A stretch of 12,689 bases of DNA from assembly GCA_037917675.1 (NCBI GenBank), contig JAVCBW010000022.1:1-12689 (forward strand), given 5' to 3'. The notes beneath the pieces were generated by a model, which saw nothing but the letters and a program-made list of their open reading frames with translations, ran no database searches and was not told the origin of the DNA. Positions 1-12,689 of this stretch are shown piece after piece. The position numbers and the translations under genes are program-made. How positions within the stretch are numbered: position 1 is the first letter of the stretch; each line of letters begins with the position of its first letter. The DNA comes from Thermoproteota archaeon. Its GTDB lineage: Archaea; Korarchaeota; Korarchaeia; B14-G2.

Positions 1-1
1 G

Positions 2-94
2 CTAGCTGAGAAAGCCAGGAAGAGAGCAGAAAACTACACATGGGAAAAGGCAGCTGAAAAGCAGCTCAAGCTATACAGGACCCTAGCAGCCTAG
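2..94 (+). CDS. 3' end of a glycosyltransferase family 4 (GT-B) gene, truncated by the window edge
   Basis: Frame 2 reads LAEKARKRAENYTWEKAAEKQLKLYRTLAA* (TAG 92-94), the typical GT4 C-terminal AR.RA..(Y/F)TWE..A....LY helix pattern. Not in the ORF track. Confidence 0.8.
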   Translation, partial: LAEKARKRAENYTWEKAAEKQLKLYRTLAA

Positions 95-254
95 CCACAA
101 GCTCAAAAGACCCCCTCCAACCTAGCAGCATGCCAAGAGGTAAGTCAAGATATCAAAGAGCTATAGCTCACAGCAGTACGCCAGTGATCTCATATGGTAG
201 GAGATCAGGTAGCCAGAGATCAGCTTAAATACCTCAAGAGCTAAGTGACTTAAG

Positions 255-282
255 TATGTCTATGAGAGGTTATGTCTATGAG
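255..282. repeat. 12-bp direct repeat TATGTCTATGAG with a 16-bp period
   Basis: Exact copies at 255-266 and 271-282, running from a TATA-like TTAAGTA (250-256) into the start codons at 272/278. Confidence 0.85.
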
Positions 283-394
283 CTCAGCCTCCACTAGCAG
301 GAGAGAGTTTAAGAGGAGAATAGGGAGAGTAAAGCATGGTAAGAGGCTGGGGGTAATCAAGAAGCTCGAGGATGAGCATGCCAGTAAGAGTTAA
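272..394 (+). CDS. Small basic ORF (38-40 aa) overlapping the start of the downstream Asn-type retropepsin
   Basis: MSMSSASTSRREFKRRIGRVKHGKRLGVIKKLEDEHASKS*, start 272 or 278. TATA-like box about 20 nt upstream. A similar ORF with the same overlap junction occurs at 4216-4353. Confidence 0.55.
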   Translation: MSMSSASTSRREFKRRIGRVKHGKRLGVIKKLEDEHASKS

Positions 395-794
395 GGTTGA
401 GATCAAGTCTAAGGGAAGCCGAGTAGTCACCTCAGCTCTCCTAAACACAGGCTTCACTACTCTAGAGCCAGAGGTCTTAGTTCCAAAGAAGCTAGCTGAG
501 AAGCTCAGCCTATGGCCTCCACCAGAAAACTCGATACTCGAATCTATCAGCACAGCTGGCGGAGAAGTCCTAAGCTACATCGTCCCGAAATCAATAGAGG
601 TAAAGGTTCTAGCTTCCAAAGCAGCTTCGGAAAGCATAGTATGCAATGCAATAGTATCCATGCATGAGAGAGAAGTGCTACTAAGCGACGCGCTGATAGA
701 AGAGCTGAAAATAGAGATAATCTCGCCAAAAACAGGGATATGGAGGTTCAGAGGGAGGCCAGAGGAGGGAAGCGTGAGACCAGAATACTGGTAG
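378..794 (+). CDS. Retropepsin-like (clan AA, AF_0612/DTGF-type) protein with the catalytic Asp replaced by Asn (NTGF)
   Basis: VRVKVEI...SALLNTGFTTLEPEVLVPKKLAEKLSL, flap-like STAGG and EVLLSDALIEELKI match the retropepsin layout. Start 378 is preferred over 372 by comparison with the paralog at 4304. Confidence 0.75.
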   Translation: MPVRVKVEIKSKGSRVVTSALLNTGFTTLEPEVLVPKKLAEKLSLWPPPENSILESISTAGGEVLSYIVPKSIEVKVLASKAASESIVCNAIVSMHEREVLLSDALIEELKIEIISPKTGIWRFRGRPEEGSVRPEYW

Positions 795-869
795 ACTATC
801 AAGAAAGACAGAGCAGCAGACAGCTAAGGCGCATGCCAGCCTAAAGGCCCCTAGTAAAATACAGCAGAC

Positions 870-1346
870 CTAGCTACAGCATGCTTTAACACTAAGTACC
901 AGGTGGACTTCCCTATAGGGCTCAGACTCAAAGACCCTACTCAAGTCGAGCTCAGGCTCCTTATAGAGCCTGAAAGAAAGCTTAAAGTCCTCCCCTGGTG
1001 CTACAACCTCGAAAACCTCTCTCCAGCACTCCCTGTCATCAAGCGTAATCCTCCTATAGCCAAGCACATCAACCCTACCACCATGCTCAAGTAAGGCAAC
1101 AAGAGCATAATCACAGCTCTCACCCTCAAGGTTCCTGACCTCCACAACAACCCTAAAGACCTCCCCCTCTCTGACAGCACTAGGGAAGGCAGCGATGCCA
1201 TCCTCTGAGACAACATAGAGCTCAGTAGTCCCCTCAGGAGGCCTAAACCAGACCCTAAACACGAGAAACTCAGCGAAAGCCATGGCTAAGACAGCAGCTA
1301 AGACAGCAGCCAAAACCTTATCGACATCAACACCAAGCTCCTCCAA
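870..1346 (-). CDS. DUF1616-domain membrane protein (single N-terminal transmembrane helix plus beta-rich domain)
   Basis: Hydrophobic N-terminus followed by TELYVV..DG..FP, VRNLEG...Y, L.D.E.W, KLSFRLYK and EPYREVHL.LSV, the motif series of DUF1616 proteins seen near archaeal glycosylation genes. Confidence 0.75.
   Translation of the reverse strand: MEELGVDVDKVLAAVLAAVLAMAFAEFLVFRVWFRPPEGTTELYVVSEDGIAAFPSAVREGEVFRVVVEVRNLEGESCDYALVALLEHGGRVDVLGYRRITLDDRECWREVFEVVAPGEDFKLSFRLYKEPELDLSRVFESEPYREVHLVLSVKACCS
1285..1310. repeat. 12-bp tandem duplication (GCTAAGACAGCA x2) in the DUF1616 transmembrane helix
   Basis: Exact copies at 1285-1296 and 1297-1308, encoding the VLAA-VLAA repeat on the minus strand. 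Confidence 0.85.
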
Positions 1347-1478
1347 AAAGCCACCAACAAAGCCTCTAAAGAACCCTATTTAAACCTCAGCTAACACAGC
1401 ATAGCAAACCTCTAAGACAAGGCTCCTAGCATATGAAGCTCATAACATTTTAGAGCGCTACTAGACATAGGATTCCTC

Positions 1479-2483
1479 TTGGCTAGCAGAAGCCTTCCTA
1501 GTGTCACCGTCGTCATAGTATCCTTAAACAGCAGAGACACGATAAGCGAGTGCATAAGCTCAGTTCTCACACAAAACTACCCTAACCTAGAGGTTATCGT
1601 GGTAGATGGAGGCTCAACTGATGGGACAATAGACGTTGTGAAAGCTACTCCAGCAAGGCTCATAGTAGAGCTAGGAGCAGGAATAGCGAGAAGCAGAAAC
1701 ATAGGAGTCAAGCATGCTAAAGGAGAGATAATAGCAATGATAGACTCAGATGCCACAGCAGCACCAGGCTGGCTGAGGAGCCTAGTAGACTGCCTCAGAG
1801 AGCCAGAGGTAGCTGCAGTAGGAGGCCCAAACCTACCCCACCCCTCTGCAAGAGGATTAGGCAAGCTCATAGGTATGCTCCCAATGGAAACCCGACTCTA
1901 CCCAGACATCAGGTATGCTACACACGAGGACATATGTACCAGGAACATAGCTTACAGGAAGAAAGCGATATTAGAAGCTGGAGGCTTCGACGAGGAGCTA
2001 GCAGCCGCTGAAGACATCGACCTAAACTGGAGAATATCCCAGAGAGGATACAAGCTAAAATACACTCCAAAAGCCATAGTCTATCACAGGCCAAGACACA
2101 CACTCAAAGCCCTCATGGCTCAAATACACAGGAATGGAAGAGGACTCGCCCAGCTCATCAAGAAAGGCAGAAGCAAAGCCATAAAAATCCACAAGTACAT
2201 CATAGGAGCCACACTACTACTCACAATACCACTACTAATCCCACTAGCAAAAAACCTCTGGGCAAAAGCCCTCCTCATACCCCTCACCACACTATACCTC
2301 CTACACCCACTCACACAAGCCATAGAAGCCCATAAAAGAGGAGCACCAAAAAAATATCTGCCAGCAATCATCGCACTCACAACCCTAATACAAACAGTAC
2401 TACTAGCCACAATCCTAACAGAGCTACCAACCCGAGAAGAGAGCATAACCAGCCCAAAAAGCTCCAAGCACACAAACCCCTAA
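1479..2483 (+). CDS. Glycosyltransferase family 2 (GT-A) with C-terminal transmembrane helices
   Basis: VTVVIVSLN, EVIVVDGGSTDGT, SRNIGVKHAKGEII, DSD (DxD), GGFDEEL..AEDIDLNWR and A.VYH motifs, followed by about 3 hydrophobic segments. Confidence 0.93.
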   Translation: MASRSLPSVTVVIVSLNSRDTISECISSVLTQNYPNLEVIVVDGGSTDGTIDVVKATPARLIVELGAGIARSRNIGVKHAKGEIIAMIDSDATAAPGWLRSLVDCLREPEVAAVGGPNLPHPSARGLGKLIGMLPMETRLYPDIRYATHEDICTRNIAYRKKAILEAGGFDEELAAAEDIDLNWRISQRGYKLKYTPKAIVYHRPRHTLKALMAQIHRNGRGLAQLIKKGRSKAIKIHKYIIGATLLLTIPLLIPLAKNLWAKALLIPLTTLYLLHPLTQAIEAHKRGAPKKYLPAIIALTTLIQTVLLATILTELPTREESITSPKSSKHTNP

Positions 2484-2800
2484 CACAGCCAAAACACCTT
2501 ACACACATACCACAAAGCACAACCCACCCCATATAGCACCTACTCCAAGAGGCAGCACCAGCCTCCAAGCTCTACCATAGGAAAATACTAACCACACTAC
2601 TCAGCTCCAACAGCTTCAGACAAAACCGGAAAAGTAACAGATCAACAAAGCATAGGCATCACTATCAGAAGACACAGAGGACACAGGCACCTAAAGCCCC
2701 GCAGCCTCCAATATAACAACCCACCAACATGCCACTACCCTATACCCTCTATCTGCTATACCCCACATAAAGTCAACTAGCACCCATATACCACCGCCAT

Positions 2801-3187
2801 TCAGAGCGCCAGCTTCAGCAACACCCCTATCAACGCCATCAACATAGGCAAGTTAAATGCTATAAACACCTTTATGAGCAAAATCACCTGCCCCTCAACC
2901 CTAGCAATACTCTGCTCCAAACCACCCATCCTATCCTCTAACCTACTCAACCTACCCTCTAAGCTACCTACCCTAGCTGTCGTCTCTTCCCCTAGCTGGC
3001 TTATCTCCCTCCTGAGCTCTCCCTCAAGCTTCTCTAGGTCTGCTTTCGTAGCCACCTCCTTCAGTATGGCGTTAGCTAGCGCCAGCCTCACATCCAGCTC
3101 TGCTACCAGCAGCTCTGCAAGCCTCCTCCTAGCTCTAACATCCTCCTCAAAGAGACTAACAATGTCATCAGCAGTCAAAGAGCCCAT
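2801..3187 (-). CDS. Membrane-anchored coiled-coil protein with head, beta-layer neck, stalk and anchor (CCDC90/DUF1640- or PaREP15-like)
   Basis: Helical head RRRLAELLV..DVRLALANAILKE, then VATKAD (hydrophobic-A-T-K-x-D beta-layer consensus), a heptad stalk and a C-terminal hydrophobic helix. TATA-like TTAAAA about 24 nt upstream. Confidence 0.8.
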   Translation of the reverse strand: MGSLTADDIVSLFEEDVRARRRLAELLVAELDVRLALANAILKEVATKADLEKLEGELRREISQLGEETTARVGSLEGRLSRLEDRMGGLEQSIARVEGQVILLIKVFIAFNLPMLMALIGVLLKLAL

Positions 3188-3504
3188 AATCCAACACTGA
3201 AGAGCACCCTTTTAAGTTACCCAGCCAGCAAACAGACCTAAAGCTATAAACACGAGAGAAGAGCTAAAGGTACACTTAAGCATCCAACCCAGCAGTAGTT
3301 CTAGATACCTCCAGCCTCATACCTCTGTAAGCGACTTCTCCCATAACCTCGATCTCTCCACCATAAACAACTTCTATAATCCTGCCGTCTAGTAGCCTCC
3401 TCAACCGTAGTTAACAGCCTGCTATTAGAGGAATACGTCGACTCTCTATCTTCTCCTCACCTCAAAGCATCCACAAACCTTTTGCGGAGCCTTATCCACC
3501 TATA

Positions 3505-3892
3505 TTATTTGCCCATCACATCCTTTGGCTCCACTCTCTCAATATCTGTTTTGTCGAAGTCTTTGTGAACGAAACCATTTGAAGCCCCTTTTCTTCGCGT
3601 AGTAGTGGAGGCCGCCGTCAAAGCCCAAACCGACCTTGCCTGCCAGCCCGCTTGCCATAAGCCCCCGAGGGTAAGTCAGCTACGACTAAGCCCCGCCACC
3701 AGCGATCTCTGATAGAAATCTCGATACAAGCCTTGGATCCCCTAGAGTAGCTGAAATCCCATGTACTGTGAAGTGGAGAATGTAAGACTTGACAACGTCT
3801 GCTTTCACCTTGTTTAGGAATTCATAGCACTCCCTCCACCTCGCTCTCTTGTATAGAAGCTCCCGTACCATGTCAGTATCTATCAAGTACAT
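3505..3892 (-). pseudogene. vapC: PIN-domain (VapC-like) toxin pseudogene with several frameshifts
   Basis: MYLIDTD..ELL at the N-terminus. After frameshifts: WRGLVVADL, GLGFDGGLHYY (degenerate LDFDD) and MVSF-KDFDKTDIERVEPKDVMGK* (stop 3505-3507). Confidence 0.8.
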
Positions 3893-4100
3893 TAGCCCCC
3901 TCCTTAAAGCTTCAACTAAGTCCCCCAAATATAGTCTGATTCAAGCCCTAAGCCCATTAAAGAGTCAACAGTACCGGGGGCTGCTCTACCTGGCTAAGCT
4001 TCCCCTCAAGAATATCAACTAAAGCTTTAGAGAGAGCCTCTCCTCTCAAACCATACTCTCCAGCAGCATACTCGCGAATCCTCTCAGATCCTATAGCCAA
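3893..4100 (-). pseudogene. Putative antitoxin (RHH-like) pseudogene upstream of the PIN gene
   Basis: GGTGA directly before TTG at 4100. Reads ERIREYAAGEYGLRGEALSKALVDILE, then frameshifted GTVDSLMGLGLESDYIW and DLVEALRR abutting the PIN start. The YG...ALSKA motif is typical of archaeal PIN-associated antitoxins. Confidence 0.6.
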
Positions 4101-4215
4101 TCACCACGTGTTAGCGCCCAGAAACCTGCTACACAGTCTACTCGCATCATTAAAAACACTAACTCCTATGAGGTGATGTAAGTGTTAATTTAGGTTTTTA
4201 CAATGATTGTTGGGG

Positions 4216-4353
4216 ATGTTCTTGAGGGAGAAGATAGGCTACATACGTGAGCTAGCTAGGTGTAGAATTGGTAGGATCTACCCTAAGGGCGAGGTTAGAG
4301 AGCATGGCTATAAGGCTGAAGTTAAGGTTAAAGAGAAAGGGAGGACATGTTAA
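4216..4353 (+). CDS. Small basic ORF (45 aa) overlapping the start of the second Asn-type retropepsin
   Basis: MFLREKIGYIRELARCRIGRIYPKGEVREHGYKAEVKVKEKGRTC*. TTAATTTA at 4185-4192, about 24 nt upstream. Same double IG motif and GAGCATG junction as 272-394. Confidence 0.5.
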   Translation: MFLREKIGYIRELARCRIGRIYPKGEVREHGYKAEVKVKEKGRTC

Positions 4354-4476
4354 TGCTGTAGCTCCAGTTAATAGTGGTTATGAAACTCTAGAACCTGAAG
4401 ACTTATACCTTCACGAATAGCCGAGGAGCTAGGCTTACTACCACTACTACCTTCAGGTAGCATGATTAAGGAGTAG
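4304..4476 (+). pseudogene. Truncated, frameshifted paralog of the Asn-type retropepsin (NSGY)
   Basis: MAIRLKLRLKRKGGHVNAVAPVNSGYETLEPE, a 1-nt deletion near 4401, then LIPSRIAEELGLLPLLPSGSMIKE*. Aligns with NTGFTTLEPEVLVPKKLAEKLSL of 378-794. Not in the ORF track. Confidence 0.8.
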
Positions 4477-4505
4477 ATTATTGGAGCATAACATATTGGC
4501 ATAGC

Positions 4506-4960
4506 TTAGAAGCATACTCTAGATTTTTCGATCATCTTATCGGAAAAACGACTATATCTATTAGTTCTCTCGTAGACAGCATGGCTAGCAACGACTGCCC
4601 TATAAGCATTTTTAAGCATAGCCCTAACCATAACATCATACCTTTTTCTTAACCTGATCCCATATCTGGCAGAGGACTCCGTTAAAATACTGTACCCTAT
4701 GCAACGTTACAACAAATGGTATGTTCTTCCTCAGCTTAGCGATGCATGTAACCTGTTCTCTTAGATGAACAAAGTAGACGTGCATTACATTAGACTCTAT
4801 ATTTTCAGCACTTCCCAAAATTCGGTACTATAAATGAGGGATAAAAAGTGAAACATTCTAGGATTGCAGAGTAACAAGTTGTAGAACTTAAAGTTCCTGA
4901 GCTCTTCAACAGACGTTATAACAATAATTCTCTAGGGAATATCAAGTTCTTAGAGGAGGT
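4506..4960 (-). pseudogene. Decayed GT4 glycosyltransferase, N-terminal domain only (boundaries approximate)
   Basis: SNVMHVYFVH...KNIPFVVTLH, then frameshifted ILTESSARYGIRLRKRYDVMVRAMLKNAYRAVVASHAVYE. This matches the D.IHAH / P.VVTLHG / AD.VI.S pattern of Glyco_transf_4. Confidence 0.65.
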
Positions 4961-5058
4961 CAAAAAGACTTAATAAACGATGTGTAACACGGTCGAGTTT
5001 TCAGAGAGAAGGAAGAGATGATTCTTGTTGAAAAGTTTCACGATGAGTCAGCTAAAAC

Positions 5059-8932: not shown

Positions 8933-9340
8933 CTAAAGTAGTAAGGCTGCCTTCACCAGCTTAACGCCTTCCTTAGGATCTAATGTTATCCCATACTTAT
9001 CCATGGTTCCTGAGCCTATGATAATCTCAGGTAGCTTTATCCTCCTACCTTCAACCTCGATTTCCTCAGCAAATTCATCTGCTACAAGCACAGTCTCTGG
9101 TGGTAGCAGCTCAATGTCATCAACGACAATAGTTATCTGAGCATACTTATCTACTTCGATGGACACGTCATTCACTAGATAGAGCTTGATAATCCTAGGT
9201 AGCTTCGACCAGCTCTTCCCGAAGCTCTTCTCGAAAAAGCTCCGCTGAACTACAGTATACCCAGAGCCCGTGTCAAATAGTGCTGTGCACTCAACCTCTC
9301 TACCCATAAACCTTACCCTTACAGTCTTCACAGCACGCAC
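8933..9340 (-). CDS. Retropepsin-like aspartic protease (clan AA) with intact DTG
   Basis: ALFDTGSGYTVV catalytic motif and PEIIIGSGTMDKY psi-loop; 135 aa single domain. Confidence 0.88.
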   Translation of the reverse strand: MRAVKTVRVRFMGREVECTALFDTGSGYTVVQRSFFEKSFGKSWSKLPRIIKLYLVNDVSIEVDKYAQITIVVDDIELLPPETVLVADEFAEEIEVEGRRIKLPEIIIGSGTMDKYGITLDPKEGVKLVKAALLL

Positions 9341-9446: not shown

Positions 9447-9887
9447 TTAAGGTTCTCGACTGCTTAGGTCTATCTCTATGCTTATGCTCCTTCCTCTAAG
9501 GAGCTTTAGGATTTCTACTGCTTTCTCCAAGCTTTCTCGGACACTAAGCTTCAGCTTAAAGCCATCGAATTCAGCTGAGAGACCATCGACGTACCATCTA
9601 GCCTTAAAGGATAATATGGCCTTCATCCCTTCCCCAACCCTAGCCTCCACCCCTATCCTGCTCACATAGCCCTCATAGTACTCCCTATAAAGCTCTAGAG
9701 TCCTCTCAACAGTCGGCTTGCAATGATACCCCACAGTAAAATGTTCTACATCATCCGGTTTAAAGATGCCCCTTAACCTCTCATCTTTAATCGAAACCTC
9801 CACCTCTACATCCCTACATCCACCCAACACATCAAGCATCTGCTTCAGGACACCTGGCTCCGCAGGGTAGACTATAAACATGGGCAT
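9447..9887 (-). CDS. Hypothetical protein (146 aa)
   Basis: Intact ORF with host-like codon usage and an AT-rich box upstream (9923-9936). No family recognised. Confidence 0.7.
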   Translation of the reverse strand: MPMFIVYPAEPGVLKQMLDVLGGCRDVEVEVSIKDERLRGIFKPDDVEHFTVGYHCKPTVERTLELYREYYEGYVSRIGVEARVGEGMKAILSFKARWYVDGLSAEFDGFKLKLSVRESLEKAVEILKLLRGRSISIEIDLSSREP

Positions 9888-10530: not shown

Positions 10531-10990
10531 ATGAGAGCTTTAAAGACCATGAGAATTGCGGCTTATGGCAGGGAGAGTACTTGTGAGACACTATTGACAC
10601 CGGGGTCTGGTATAACAGCTATTCAGAGAAAGCTTTATGAGAGGGAGTTTGAGAGAAGATGGTTGAAGCTTGATAGACCTACTAAAGTCTTCCGGTTAAA
10701 TAGGCGTGAGCTTAGATAAGCATGTTCAAGCCACGACCGTCATCGACGAATACCAGCTGCCAGAAGTGGTCTTCGTGATCGATGAATGGGCTGAGAGAAC
10801 AAAGGTCGATGAAAAGGAGATCAAGCTCCCAGAGATTGTTGTCGGATCCGGAACAATGGACAAGTATAGAATATCACTCGACCCTAAGGAAGGGGTAAAA
10901 ATCTCAGACCTCCGGGATCATCAGGCTCATCTCCTCGCCCTCCTCATCAGGAGTAGTTGGAGGAGCAGTGAGGGTTTCTTGAATGATTGA
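10531..10990 (+). pseudogene. Frameshifted paralog of the 8933-9340 retropepsin
   Basis: MRALKTMR vs MRAVKTVR, and IKLPEIVVGSGTMDKYRISLDPKEGVK is 23/27 identical to the intact copy. DTG codons (10596-10604) are out of frame and there is a further frameshift near 10714. Homology ends near 10900. Confidence 0.88.
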
Positions 10991-10999
10991 AGAAGGTTT

Positions 11000-11152
11000 G
11001 TGAAGGCTTTAGAGCAAGATCCCGATGTTATTGAGATCGTTCAGTTTGGCTCTCCAGCTTATACGCATGAATATGCTAGGGATGTTGGTGTGCTGATAAT
11101 TACTAGAAACCCAAGAGACTATGGTGTGTACTTGGATGCTGTAGAGGAAGAA
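11000..11152 (+). pseudogene. Minimal nucleotidyltransferase (MNT) remnant, truncated
   Basis: DPDVIEIVQFGSPAYTHEYARDVGVLIIT has the FGS motif but a degenerate DxD (DVG). The ORF continues into transposon-derived sequence. Confidence 0.7.
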
Positions 11153-11212
11153 GCAAAGGTCGTAGAGTTAAAGCTAACCGATAAGGCATGTAGCGGAAAG
11201 ATTAGGGAGTAT

Positions 11213-11322
11213 ATGAGGGGAGGTTTCCGTTCCCCCGAAAGCCTGCCGATGAAACCTGAGACGGGAAGGTCCCCAGCTACGAGTGTAACGAAAGTTATAA
11301 ATGTAGCGGAGAATCAGAACGG
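11213..11322 (+). mobile_element. 3' end of a tnpB element (IS607 or IS200/IS605 type) with a putative omegaRNA scaffold
   Basis: ATGAGGGGAGGTTTCCGTTCCCCCGAAAGCCTGCCGATGAAA resembles archaeal TnpB tails (MWGVSVPPES.PMK, recalled). Stems GGGGA/TCCCC, GCTAC/GTAGC and TGTAAC-GAAA-GTTATA are present, and CCGTTC (11227-11232) is complementary to terminal GAACGG (11317-11322). Confidence 0.6.
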
Positions 11323-11453
11323 CTGCTGAGAGAATACAAAGTGAAGTTAGAGGATACCTTAGAAAAATGCTAGCATCCAACGTTTAAAGAGATTTTAAAG
11401 AGGATGGCCCCTGAGGAGGCCGTAATTTTACATCCAAGCAACTTAACTCCGAG

Positions 11454-11702
11454 CTATATTACCCCAAGGATTTTCAGCAAGATAGGTACTAGCGTCATCA
11501 TTACAGTTACCCACATGCCTAGAATGAGCCCTACAGTCCACTTAAATAAGCTTGAAACCTCAGCTCTAAGATTTGACATCTCAGCTCTAAGGTTTGATAT
11601 CTCCACCCTAAGGTTTGATATCTCAGCCTCAACATGGTTCAGTCTCCTATCCATTTGCTCCAAAATGCCTTCAACCCTTGCCATCATCTCCTCGAGAGAC
11701 AT
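11454..11702 (-). CDS. Short membrane-anchored coiled-coil protein (DUF1640/CCDC90-like stalk and anchor, 82 aa)
   Basis: MSLEEMMARVEGILEQMDRRLNHVE, (AEISNLR)-type heptads, then FKWTVGLILGMWVTVMMTLVPILLK. Start at 11702 or 11705 is preferred over 11813. Confidence 0.8.
   Translation of the reverse strand: MSLEEMMARVEGILEQMDRRLNHVEAEISNLRVEISNLRAEMSNLRAEVSSLFKWTVGLILGMWVTVMMTLVPILLKILGVI
11554..11627. repeat. 21-bp tandem repeat (about 3.5 copies) encoding coiled-coil heptads
   Basis: GAAACCTCAGCTCTAAGATTT / GACATCTCAGCTCTAAGGTTT / GATATCTCCACCCTAAGGTTT / GATATCTCAGC starting at 11554, 11575, 11596 and 11617. Confidence 0.9.
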
Positions 11703-11719
11703 CATCAAAAGAGATAAGT

Positions 11720-11814
11720 TAAGGTTGTATCTAACCTTACCCAAGGAACCAAAAGCCGAGGTCACATCATTAGTGAACGTAAGCTGAGGCAAACAATGTT
11801 GCATATGTAACATT
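11720..11814. promoter_or_regulatory. Two palindromic candidate operator sites upstream of the coiled-coil gene
   Basis: TAAGGTT-N6-AACCTTA (11720-11739) and AATGTTGCATATGTAACATT (11795-11814, one mismatched pair). Confidence 0.4.
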
Positions 11815-11857: not shown

Positions 11858-12106
11858 CTATAGATTGGCTCTGCTCAGGATATATAGGATTACTGCTAAG
11901 AACGCTAATGGCCCACTTTACACCAAGCTTATCCCCTATACTGGTCAGCATCTTGTCCTGTCTAGCAAGACGCTTGCAAGCTCAGCTATGACCAGCTCAG
12001 AGACGACCTTGCTGCCGTTCGCCTCTAAGGTCTTCCTAGCTTTCTTCCTCCCAGGGTCCGTAAGGTCAAGTGCTGCCACTATTACGCTTGTGTCCACATA
12101 GATCAA
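11858..12106 (-). pseudogene. vapC: PIN-domain (VapC-like) toxin pseudogene, frameshifted and truncated
   Basis: (M)IYVDTSVIVAALDLTDP...VVSELVIAELASVL, then frameshifted RQDKMLTSIGDKLGV and LAFLAVILYILSRANL*. C-terminal acidic motifs are missing. Confidence 0.8.
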
Positions 12107-12110
12107 TGCT

Positions 12111-12239
12111 TTAAAACCTCTCTCGTTCAGCTGGTAACTGCCTTGAAGCACCTTCAAGCCTTACCGGCATATCCCCTTCCTCTTTCTCCAACTCGAAGAG
12201 CTTATTTACAGCCTCGGTAATCGCCCTAACCCATCTCAT
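12111..12239 (-). CDS. Putative antitoxin (42 aa, possibly 5'-truncated) directly upstream of the PIN gene
   Basis: MRWVRAITEAVNKLFELEKEEGDMPVRLEGASRQLPAERERF*, whose stop lies 4 nt before the PIN TTG start. The call is positional. Confidence 0.5.
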   Translation of the reverse strand: MRWVRAITEAVNKLFELEKEEGDMPVRLEGASRQLPAERERF

Positions 12240-12362: not shown

Positions 12363-12689
12363 ATGGATTTTGCTAAAGCTAGGATCATGGTTGTTGGGGA
12401 GAGGAGTGGTTATGAGGAGATTGCACTTGTCGATACTGGTGCATGGTATACAGTTATTGATAGGGAGTTAGCAGATGAAATCGGTGTGAGGTATACTGGC
12501 TTAACATCGGGGGTAACATCGTTCTCAGGCCATAGAGTTGAATGCGATGAAGCTGTTGTGGACAGCTTAAAGGTGGAGGATAGAACAGCTCCATTAGAGC
12601 TCGTAGCCGTGTGCACTATCCCAAGCCAAGCGAAGGAGTTGTTGAGGAAGCAGGAGGTCAGCGATCAGATTGTTATAGGTGTTCACACC
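12363..12689 (+). CDS. Retropepsin-like aspartic protease (clan AA) with intact DTG, running off the window end
   Basis: MDFAKARIMVVGERSGYEEIALVDTGAWYTVIDRELADEIGV...TSFSG...SDQIVIGVHT, open for 109 codons to the edge. TATA-like TTTAATAA at 12321-12328. Missed by the ORF track. Confidence 0.88.
   Translation, partial: MDFAKARIMVVGERSGYEEIALVDTGAWYTVIDRELADEIGVRYTGLTSGVTSFSGHRVECDEAVVDSLKVEDRTAPLELVAVCTIPSQAKELLRKQEVSDQIVIGVHT

Follow-up and report, generated by a model that had tools for sequence, protein, structure and literature searches.

Why should a retropepsin-like gene that carries asparagine in place of its catalytic aspartate be preceded, on the same strand and with overlapping ends, by a reading frame of only 40 codons? 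The question is raised by a 12,689-nucleotide stretch of DNA from a Thermoproteota archaeon of the Korarchaeia (assembly GCA_037917675.1, contig JAVCBW010000022.1), the whole of which is referred to here as the window. The larger gene, at positions 378–794 (+), encodes a protein of 138 amino acids with Asn23 at 444–446 in the motif LLNTGF and a stop codon at 792–794, and the short open reading frame (ORF) at 272–394 (+) encodes a basic micro-protein (40 codons from the ATG at 272, stop codon at 392–394, net charge +8). A reading made from the letters and their translations, hereafter the sequence-only reading, had proposed that the two products form a pair of peptide and pseudo-protease. We consider it about 70% probable that positions 224–794 are a self-contained two-gene operon, of a kind widespread in archaea, encoding a micro-protein and an Asn-type pseudo-protease with predicted binding in the cleft of the latter. 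The pairing itself proved to be conserved, as did the asparagine, and a complex model places the peptide in the putative substrate cleft. The sequence-only reading also knew of no described system with such a layout, and our search of the literature, which covered main texts, likewise found no account of Asn-type retropepsins paired with a micro-protein gene of their own upstream.

An asparagine-type retropepsin fold and its predicted ligand

The protease-like protein begins MPVRVKV, with an alternative ATG at 372, and carries flap-like STAGGE and EVLLSD motifs. With 23 homologues as input, AlphaFold2 gave a model with a mean predicted local distance difference test score (pLDDT) of 91.5 and a predicted template modelling score (pTM) of 0.84. 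Searched against the PDB with Foldseek, it returned RSV, SIV, FIV, HIV and HTLV proteases together with human DDI1 RVP (3s8i) and Rickettsia APRc (5c9f) among the 50 matches listed, with a best E-value of 2.3e-5 and target-normalised template modelling scores of approximately 0.6–0.77 among those matches. A profile comparison with 22 archaeal relatives that retain the aspartate (Asp-type) gave a probability of 94% in hhalign (E = 1.4e-7, 22% identity) and paired ALLNTGF with lvDTGyT, putting Asn23 on the catalytic Asp of DTG. By its model and by this profile comparison, the 378–794 protein has the clan AA (retropepsin-like) fold, a beta-barrel whose psi-loop bears x-T/S-G, together with a flap hairpin and a C-terminal helix motif. 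Sequence libraries were less informative, as Pfam gave no family at E ≤ 1 for 372–794, leaving the aspartyl protease families (PF13650, PF13975 and others) unmatched, and a PDB sequence search with the family profile returned chance matches only (E ≥ 0.44). The lone NCBIfam match, to TIGR03698 (clan_AA_DTGF; 18.6 bits, E = 0.0018), lies below the curated cut-off of 57.35, so the protein falls outside that family.

The asparagine is not a peculiarity of this locus. It occupies position 23 in 22 of 23 close homologues, with Lys in the remaining one, and a search of 1.84 billion representative proteins recovered 663 relatives at E ≤ 0.001 (344 at E ≤ 1e-10), counted as representatives at the 50% identity level. 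Among the best 150 of these 663, Asn was found in 141 of the 142 with a residue at that position, Arg in one and Asp in none. The eight copies in the window's own genome read Asn six times and Ser twice, both Ser copies being broken. As Asn is nearly universal in the representatives, Asp is absent from them and the Ser copies are broken, the asparagine represents an old, selected trait rather than the decay of a DTG enzyme. The family lacks the catalytic aspartate of active clan AA aspartic peptidases, and since this residue of D-T/S-G is replaced by Asn across the family, the Asn-type protein is most likely a non-catalytic peptide-binding dimer. Family members are of approximately 140 amino acids and mildly acidic (median isoelectric point 5.2, net charge −4 per chain), and named archaeal homologues come from Thermoproteota, Bathyarchaeia, Methanodesulfokora, Caldarchaeales, Hecatellales, Geocrenenecus, Baldrarchaeota and Thermofilum pendens. 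No fused longer relatives of 257–2000 amino acids were present among 8000 candidates, which is weak evidence.

The nearest described proteins are those of TIGR03698 (the AF_0612 family; COG5550), which have a common fold, similar size and detectable homology with the Asn-type proteins, including the x-T/S-G-F/Y, LGL and flap Gly motifs. The Asn-type family differs, however, in having Asn for the catalytic Asp, in scoring far below the TIGR03698 cut-off, and in a C-terminal extension of approximately 30 residues that ends in a conserved Trp. This Trp, usually within (P)E-Y/x-W, was present in 95 of 95 sequences reaching the last profile column and lies outside the confident peptide contacts of the complex model described below. 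Passages of two published papers touch on such proteins, one noting COG5550 in A. fulgidus (PMC2642776) and the other a retropepsin-domain protein of approximately 100 amino acids near type III CRISPR loci in Sulfolobales (PMC3973734).

The micro-protein in the window reads MS(MS)SASTSRREFKRRIGRVKHGKRLGVIKKLEDEHASKS, where the brackets mark a second in-frame ATG at 278 that would give 38 amino acids and agrees with the ‘MSS’ start of the orthologues. Two short units stand out within it, RIGRV at 317–331 (+; peptide residues 14–18) and RLGVI at 344–358 (+; residues 23–27), both recognised by their conservation across peptides and by their contacts in the complex model. Gly16 is invariant and Arg14 at least 90% conserved among 36 aligned peptides. 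The family as a whole can be described as micro-proteins of approximately 38–45 amino acids with two R-[ILV]-G-x-[ILVM] units and a median net charge of +8.5, of which a core of 21 residues has a median of +8. The tail beyond the overlap (A-S-K-S-K-G...) was left out as a conserved feature in its own right, since it is an off-frame reading of the conserved MPVRVRV codons of the downstream gene.

Modelling the dimer together with the peptide, a check suggested by the sequence-only reading, came out in favour of a complex. The median complex score of three runs was 0.83 (0.82, 0.83 and 0.83) against 0.07 for the best of three controls, two unrelated 38-residue control peptides scoring 0.01 and 0.02; 58 of 80 solved complexes and two of 110 mismatched pairs attain the mark applied, a calibration that is rough here given our own alignments and a three-chain job. 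Contacts agreed between runs at 94% or more. In the model the two protease chains are placed around one peptide with a pLDDT of 94–95, the peptide alone being scored and the dimer itself having no control. On the peptide side the confident interface comprises residues 11–29, exactly the two-unit core. On the protease side it comprises, in both copies, residues 21, 23, 25–29, 32, 34, 48–61, 63, 65, 67, 92, 94, 97, 101 and 103, which in the model form the Asn23-Thr-Gly-Phe loop, the flaps and the cleft walls. Peptide residues 14–19 are predicted to contact Asn23, Gly25, Phe26 and Thr27 of the two subunits, with Val18 lying against these four residues of one subunit and Arg14 and Ile15 against Gly25 and Phe26 of the other, and unit 2 (residues 23–27) to contact flap-strand residues 52–55 of one subunit. 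The basic peptide core and the mildly acidic protease-like protein are complementary in charge, and the rare in-frame fusions described below likewise agree with binding. The micro-protein is predicted to occupy the dimer's cleft in the manner of a pseudo-substrate.

A mirror relation between the two units, suited to a symmetric dimer, was considered but is weakly supported. Unit-to-unit identity was 0.328 within peptides and 0.280 between them, a value reached in 174 of 10000 shuffles (34 of the 36 peptides of the alignment, extra paralogues from related genomes left out), and the effect came from a few paralogues with recent internal repeats.

The best structural matches include retroviral proteases with substrate, among them HIV-1 D25N (PDB 2nxd, 4qj2), and the model repeats their homodimer with a cleft peptide under two flaps. 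The Asn is, however, natural and ancient here and engineered there, the ligand is a dedicated two-unit gene product of approximately 40 amino acids rather than a polyprotein site, and the genes are cellular archaeal ones with no retroelement. Substitution of Asp by Asn, which leaves HIV protease D25N inactive, keeps substrate binding. A second parallel is with the pepsinogen prosegment and with yeast IA3 bound to proteinase A, in which basic, otherwise unstructured stretches of approximately 40–70 residues fill the cleft of an aspartic protease. Those act on active two-lobed pepsins (family A1), whereas the micro-protein is a separate gene whose partner has no catalytic Asp, hence there would be no activity here to hold back.

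The same structural picture could be taken to mean that the Asn-type protein does work, very slowly or through other residues such as Glu27, Glu99 or Asp104, and that the micro-protein is its trans prosegment, inhibitor or processed precursor. The placing of the peptide in the substrate cleft would suit such a scheme, as would the conservation of Glu27, Glu99 and Asp104 in more than 85% of the 150 representatives, and basic prosegments that block aspartic proteases are known from pepsinogen. A peptide-like stretch is moreover fused in frame at the N-terminus of the Asn-type protein in three of the 150 representatives (P0168, P0159 and P0215), a prosegment-like arrangement that was read from protein calls only and could reflect a missed stop or an over-extended gene call. 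However, the representatives hold the Asn with no Asp among them, Glu99 and Asp104 fall outside the confident contacts, and the conserved SD of LLSD is aligned by hhalign with a structural Gly-x motif of the Asp-type proteins and not with the catalytic position. Clan AA peptidases need their Asp pair, and we know of no clan AA enzyme that works without it. We regard this alternative as unlikely.

The micro-protein gene and its pairing with the Asn-type gene

Conservation of the upstream ORF was examined in 34 loci fetched from other genomes, of which the 32 with a protease N-terminus were used (the partial matches L044 and L046 were left out). By reading, the Asn-type gene in each of the 32 is immediately preceded on its own strand by a basic ORF that contains two R-[ILV]-G-x-[ILVM] units; under the strict pattern, required within 150 nucleotides, 30 of the 32 qualify, L034 and L041 having variant units. 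Further paralogue loci from related genomes showed the strict pattern in 14 of 22 cases; most of the other eight have variant or single units by reading, and L074 has none. By chance, such matches should be rare, as the 87 found in all six frames of a 1.78-megabase genome correspond to approximately 0.004 expected per 180-nucleotide upstream stretch. The sequence-only reading had named this conservation as its own test, and the outcome agrees with it at the codon level too. In 17 ungapped core codons of 21 loci the entropy at codon positions 1, 2 and 3 was 0.78, 0.60 and 1.40, and the ratio of non-synonymous to synonymous polymorphism (pN/pS) was 0.36 in the frame of the small ORF, compared with 1.14 and 1.19 when the two off frames are read. 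The upstream ORF is a true gene whose amino-acid sequence is kept in several archaeal phyla.

In the window the protease-like ORF is in the +1 frame relative to the small ORF and overlaps it by 17 nucleotides counted from the ATG at 378. The protease start is overlapped in 28 of the 32 loci, by 11–56 nucleotides in most, and the small ORF is then usually in the −1 frame. Nevertheless this relation is not fixed: in L013 and L026 the small ORF shares its frame with the protease and stops nine nucleotides ahead of the ATG, a different frame is used in L014 and L045, and L015 has the stop ten nucleotides before the protease start. Given this varying relation, the small ORF is independent and a fixed frameshift fusion is excluded. 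The sequence-only reading had also drawn attention to an identical GAGCATG at the junction of two such gene pairs in the window. The heptamer is indeed present at 374–380 and 4300–4306, but it carries no special meaning and was given no weight, since it occurs six times in the window against 1.74 expected and is not kept in paralogues or orthologues.

Candidate signals for expression can be read ahead of the small ORF. A TATA-like box, TTAAATAC, at 224–231 (+) is a candidate promoter of the two-gene unit, and the closest orthologues, L013 and L014, likewise have a box of the form GCTTAAATAC or TTAAATAC ahead of their small ORF. Aligned on the small-ORF start, 36 loci have their A/T maximum 48 to 32 nucleotides upstream, not 20–25 nucleotides as the sequence-only reading had placed the TATA-like box, and a G-rich dip at −11 to −8. 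A purine-rich Shine-Dalgarno-like GAGAGGT is readable at 263–269 (+), ahead of the ATG at 272 or 278, and in L013, L014, L015, L017 and L020 the start of the small ORF follows a stretch of the GGTGA or GGTGG type. In many loci this start lies approximately 97 nucleotides before that of the protease, often after a GGTGA-type stretch. By its sequence, the start-region pattern seems to fit an archaeal TATA box followed by a short leader with a Shine-Dalgarno site. The protease gene's own Shine-Dalgarno-like GGAGG or GGTGA falls within the G-E-E codons of the small ORF, and we infer that the two genes are co-transcribed and their translation coupled.

The overlap of the downstream start in 28 of 32 loci, together with this placing of the Shine-Dalgarno-like stretch inside the small ORF, is also what might be seen if the small ORF were a regulatory upstream ORF only, setting the translation or stability of the protease-like gene, with a product that has no stable partner. 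Against this, the amino acids of the two units are kept across phyla under purifying selection, the small ORF persists without overlap in L013, L014, L015 and L026, the complex model is specific relative to its controls, and in-frame fusions exist. A purely regulatory ORF is quite unlikely, and a micro-protein that binds its neighbour remains the preferred reading.

To what extent the pairing is particular to the Asn-type clade can be judged from Asp-type relatives, which give a TIGR03698-type match at E ≤ 1e-5 in 23 of 43 genomes of the phylum. We examined 28 of the 31 listed matches, leaving out the own-genome fragment G000:C34 as well as G038:C107 and G024:C1. All 28 loci read D-T/S-G or a similar Asp motif, and the two-unit pattern was found upstream of none of them (150 nucleotides, any frame). 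The dedicated upstream micro-protein is thus a further difference from TIGR03698 and COG5550, and the pairing is specific to the Asn-type clade. Several Asp-type genes of another kind in related genomes, reading DTGYEGF, have their start overlapped by the end of a conserved upstream ORF, ...LPPPKPLARAGARVxER, at L078, L083–L087, L090 and L100; this ORF is a different conserved partner gene of a different clan AA subgroup.

Asp-type and Asn-type genes do co-occur in the window and in several related genomes, and retropepsins work as dimers, hence the Asn-type subunit could serve chiefly to form heterodimers with the Asp-type paralogues of the same genome, as a dominant-negative or regulatory subunit, with the micro-protein tuning the interaction. 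However, Asn-type genes are present in two genomes (G003, 99% complete, and G040, 93% complete) that have no TIGR03698-type match at E ≤ 1e-5, the two families are only distantly related (22% identity by hhalign), and the homodimer model is confident (pLDDT 94–95). We consider this as the main role very unlikely. It is hardly credible that the repeated units are DNA or RNA signals (operator repeats, leader structure) or an N-terminal part joined by programmed frameshifting, as exact DNA repeats in some paralogues (33 nucleotides three times in C11, 19 nucleotides twice in C2) and the same −1 frame relation in most loci might hint, since third codon positions vary freely with the amino acids kept, L013/L026, L014, L045 and several relatives have other frame relations, with stops between the ORFs, the start codon and Shine-Dalgarno-like stretch are kept, and Rfam gave no match at E ≤ 1 in window positions 1–5000.

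Copies, neighbours and other genes of the window

The sequence-only reading had described the two-gene unit as present twice in the window, with a basic small ORF bearing two [KR][IL]Gx[IV] motifs ahead of each Asn-type locus. Both small ORFs were seen, with RIGRV and RLGVI in the first and KIGYI and RIGRI in the second, and both overlap their protease start. The second, at 4207–4353 (+), is still open (48 amino acids from the TTG at 4207 or 45 from the ATG at 4216) and overlaps the ATG at 4304. However, the gene that follows it at 4304–4476 (+; PVNSGY) is a remnant: it has 38 codons to a stop at 4418–4420 and approximately 25 more homologous codons in another frame (4399–4473, stop at 4474–4476), after which the homology ends. 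A count of two working copies is hence wrong for the window, and for the genome the number is eight loci, of which four are intact and four broken. The small ORF is kept at six of the eight; C15 and C25, both broken, have none. Neither small ORF of the window is quite unannotated as had been stated, since both are in a public protein collection (P0074 for 272–394 and P0087 for the second, as a 43-amino-acid call), albeit without a name. Public gene calls contain 46 such small proteins of 36–84 amino acids, all nameless or ‘hypothetical’ and none with a Pfam domain.

Elsewhere the Asn-type family was detected in 12 of the 41 related genomes; matched stretches reach 13 in a single genome, and many matches are partial or interrupted by stops. 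The peptides differ strongly between paralogues, and at least four peptide sequence types were seen. A phmmer search of the window's own genome with the 40-amino-acid peptide recovered only the peptide itself, divergence among the peptides being too fast for a search from one sequence to succeed. Some paralogues contain recent-looking exact repeats: the small ORF at C11:11610–11744 (−; locus L002) consists in part of an exact 33-nucleotide tandem repeat present three times, encoding HGERIGHISEV three times, hence the number of units can grow by slippage, and the C2 paralogue has an exact internal repeat of 19 nucleotides present twice.

The neighbours of the pair vary in identity and orientation and include no conserved third partner; the pair is self-contained. 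For the 99 ORFs that neighbour 28 loci, the Pfam families seen most often, given as raw counts, were Polbeta/NTP_transf_2 (6), HepT-like (4), HEPN (3) and PIN (2), and the remaining families were assorted housekeeping genes.

Three Asp-type retropepsin-like genes also lie in the window, none of which has a two-unit small ORF upstream. An Asp-type gene at 8933–9340 (−; LFDTGSGYT, weak PF13650 match at E = 0.006) is preceded by an ORF of 146 amino acids at 9447–9887 with no Pfam, PADLOC or PHROGs match. A broken copy at 10531–10990 (+) is split over two frames and reads LLTPGSGIT at the motif, and an Asp-type gene with LVDTGAWYT (PF13650, E = 1.7e-8, 35.5 bits) begins at 12363 (+) and runs off the window end at 12689. 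A truncated PIN-domain ORF of 70 amino acids at 11945–12157 (−; PF01850, E = 1.7e-9, profile positions 1–47 of 120) is overlapped by a small upstream ORF at 12111–12239 (−), and the two look like a decayed VapBC-type pair. ORFs of approximately 120–128 amino acids at 2801–3187 (−) and 11454–11813 (−) each have a coiled coil together with a hydrophobic segment at the C-terminus, and the one at 11454–11813 has a repeated SNLR(A/V)E heptad-like run; Pfam gave weak coiled-coil matches only. Pfam gave no support for reading the ORF at 3686–3928 as PIN-like or that at 11000–11329 as a nucleotidyltransferase.

What the pair may do

In the proposed mechanism both proteins would be made together, through a promoter ahead of the small ORF and coupled translation, and the micro-protein would then occupy the homodimer cleft as a pseudo-substrate, unit 1 spanning the paired Asn23 residues and unit 2 pairing with one flap. 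Of the roles that the sequence-only reading had suggested, namely a toxin–antitoxin-like unit, a peptide receptor or a dominant-negative partner of the DTG paralogues, we tentatively favour the first, at somewhat below even odds: an accessory toxin–antitoxin-like cassette, in which a probably disordered upstream micro-protein would plug the groove of a ‘substrate-trap’ pseudo-protease. A dimer deprived of its cognate peptide might, on such a view, seize basic stretches of cellular proteins. This guess is prompted by the multicopy, patchy and decaying distribution, the fast co-diversification, the small upstream partner that covers the active-site region and the HEPN-MNT and PIN neighbourhoods.

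The likeness is to type II toxin–antitoxin systems such as VapBC and HEPN-MNT, where a small upstream gene overlaps a larger, co-oriented downstream gene and the products bind, as they are predicted to do here. In those systems the small product covers the active-site region of its partner, again as predicted here, and their many diverged copies, patchy distribution, frequent decay and occurrence among other toxin–antitoxin genes are all matched. The pair differs from them in that its small protein shows no DNA-binding domain and neither protein is represented in PADLOC or Pfam. To our knowledge, no known toxin has a retropepsin fold.

Several observations weigh against the operon as interpreted here, or against its putative role. 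All evidence for binding comes from a structure model, which combined two protease-like chains (alignment A1) and one micro-protein (alignment A2) in unpaired alignments at a 2:1 ratio that we chose ourselves; the pLDDT of the peptide was just 66–67, and as retroviral protease-peptide complexes are abundant in the PDB, the model may owe some of its score to the pose that ligands of this fold usually take. With regard to conservation, a peptide-core profile trained without the window's genome recovered at E ≤ 1 only six of the 22 further paralogue loci, a shortfall that we ascribe to fast divergence of the peptides, and none of the 28 Asp-type loci. Some of the variant-unit readings were made by eye, and the related-genome loci are not independent, L047, L048 and L049 repeating L016, L014 and L031. 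With regard to a toxin–antitoxin role, Pfam and NCBIfam found no recognisable DNA-binding domain, or any domain, in the micro-protein, PADLOC, which covers known anti-phage defence systems, gave no family for either protein and PHROGs nothing meaningful. The neighbour counts are raw figures, uncorrected for a genome background rate, and the window's intact copy lies between the end of a glycosyltransferase gene, a DUF1616 gene and a GT2 gene, with no obvious island. No relatives were confirmed on viral contigs, which is weak evidence because the scan depends on two exact peptide patterns. A peptide profile match at C41:86552–86665 in the window's genome was rejected as an off-frame chance match inside another gene.

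A bolder interpretation, possible though speculative, is that this is a new archaeal two-component module built on a dead protease, in which the retropepsin dimer would be a sequence-specific peptide clamp and the co-diversifying micro-protein its pseudo-substrate key. Paralogous pairs might then be private locks and keys, serving as a toxin–antitoxin or defence switch of a new type or as an intracellular peptide-receptor system.

The finding concerns a large protein family for which we found no Pfam model, solved structure or paper, with its 663 representatives at 50% identity spread over several archaeal phyla, and its obligate partner is a micro-protein of a size class often missed by annotation. 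If the predicted binding is true, the family would be a natural and ancient case of an aspartic-protease fold turned to peptide binding, and with the ligand encoded next door it would offer a ready-made system in which to study the reading of sequence by retropepsin clefts. A distribution of many copies, patchy and prone to decay, beside HEPN-MNT and PIN genes suggests that hyperthermophilic archaea have a cassette of a new addiction or defence type. The pair, a pseudo-enzyme with a dedicated ligand in a toxin–antitoxin-like gene layout, has a fair chance of proving to be a new class of module.

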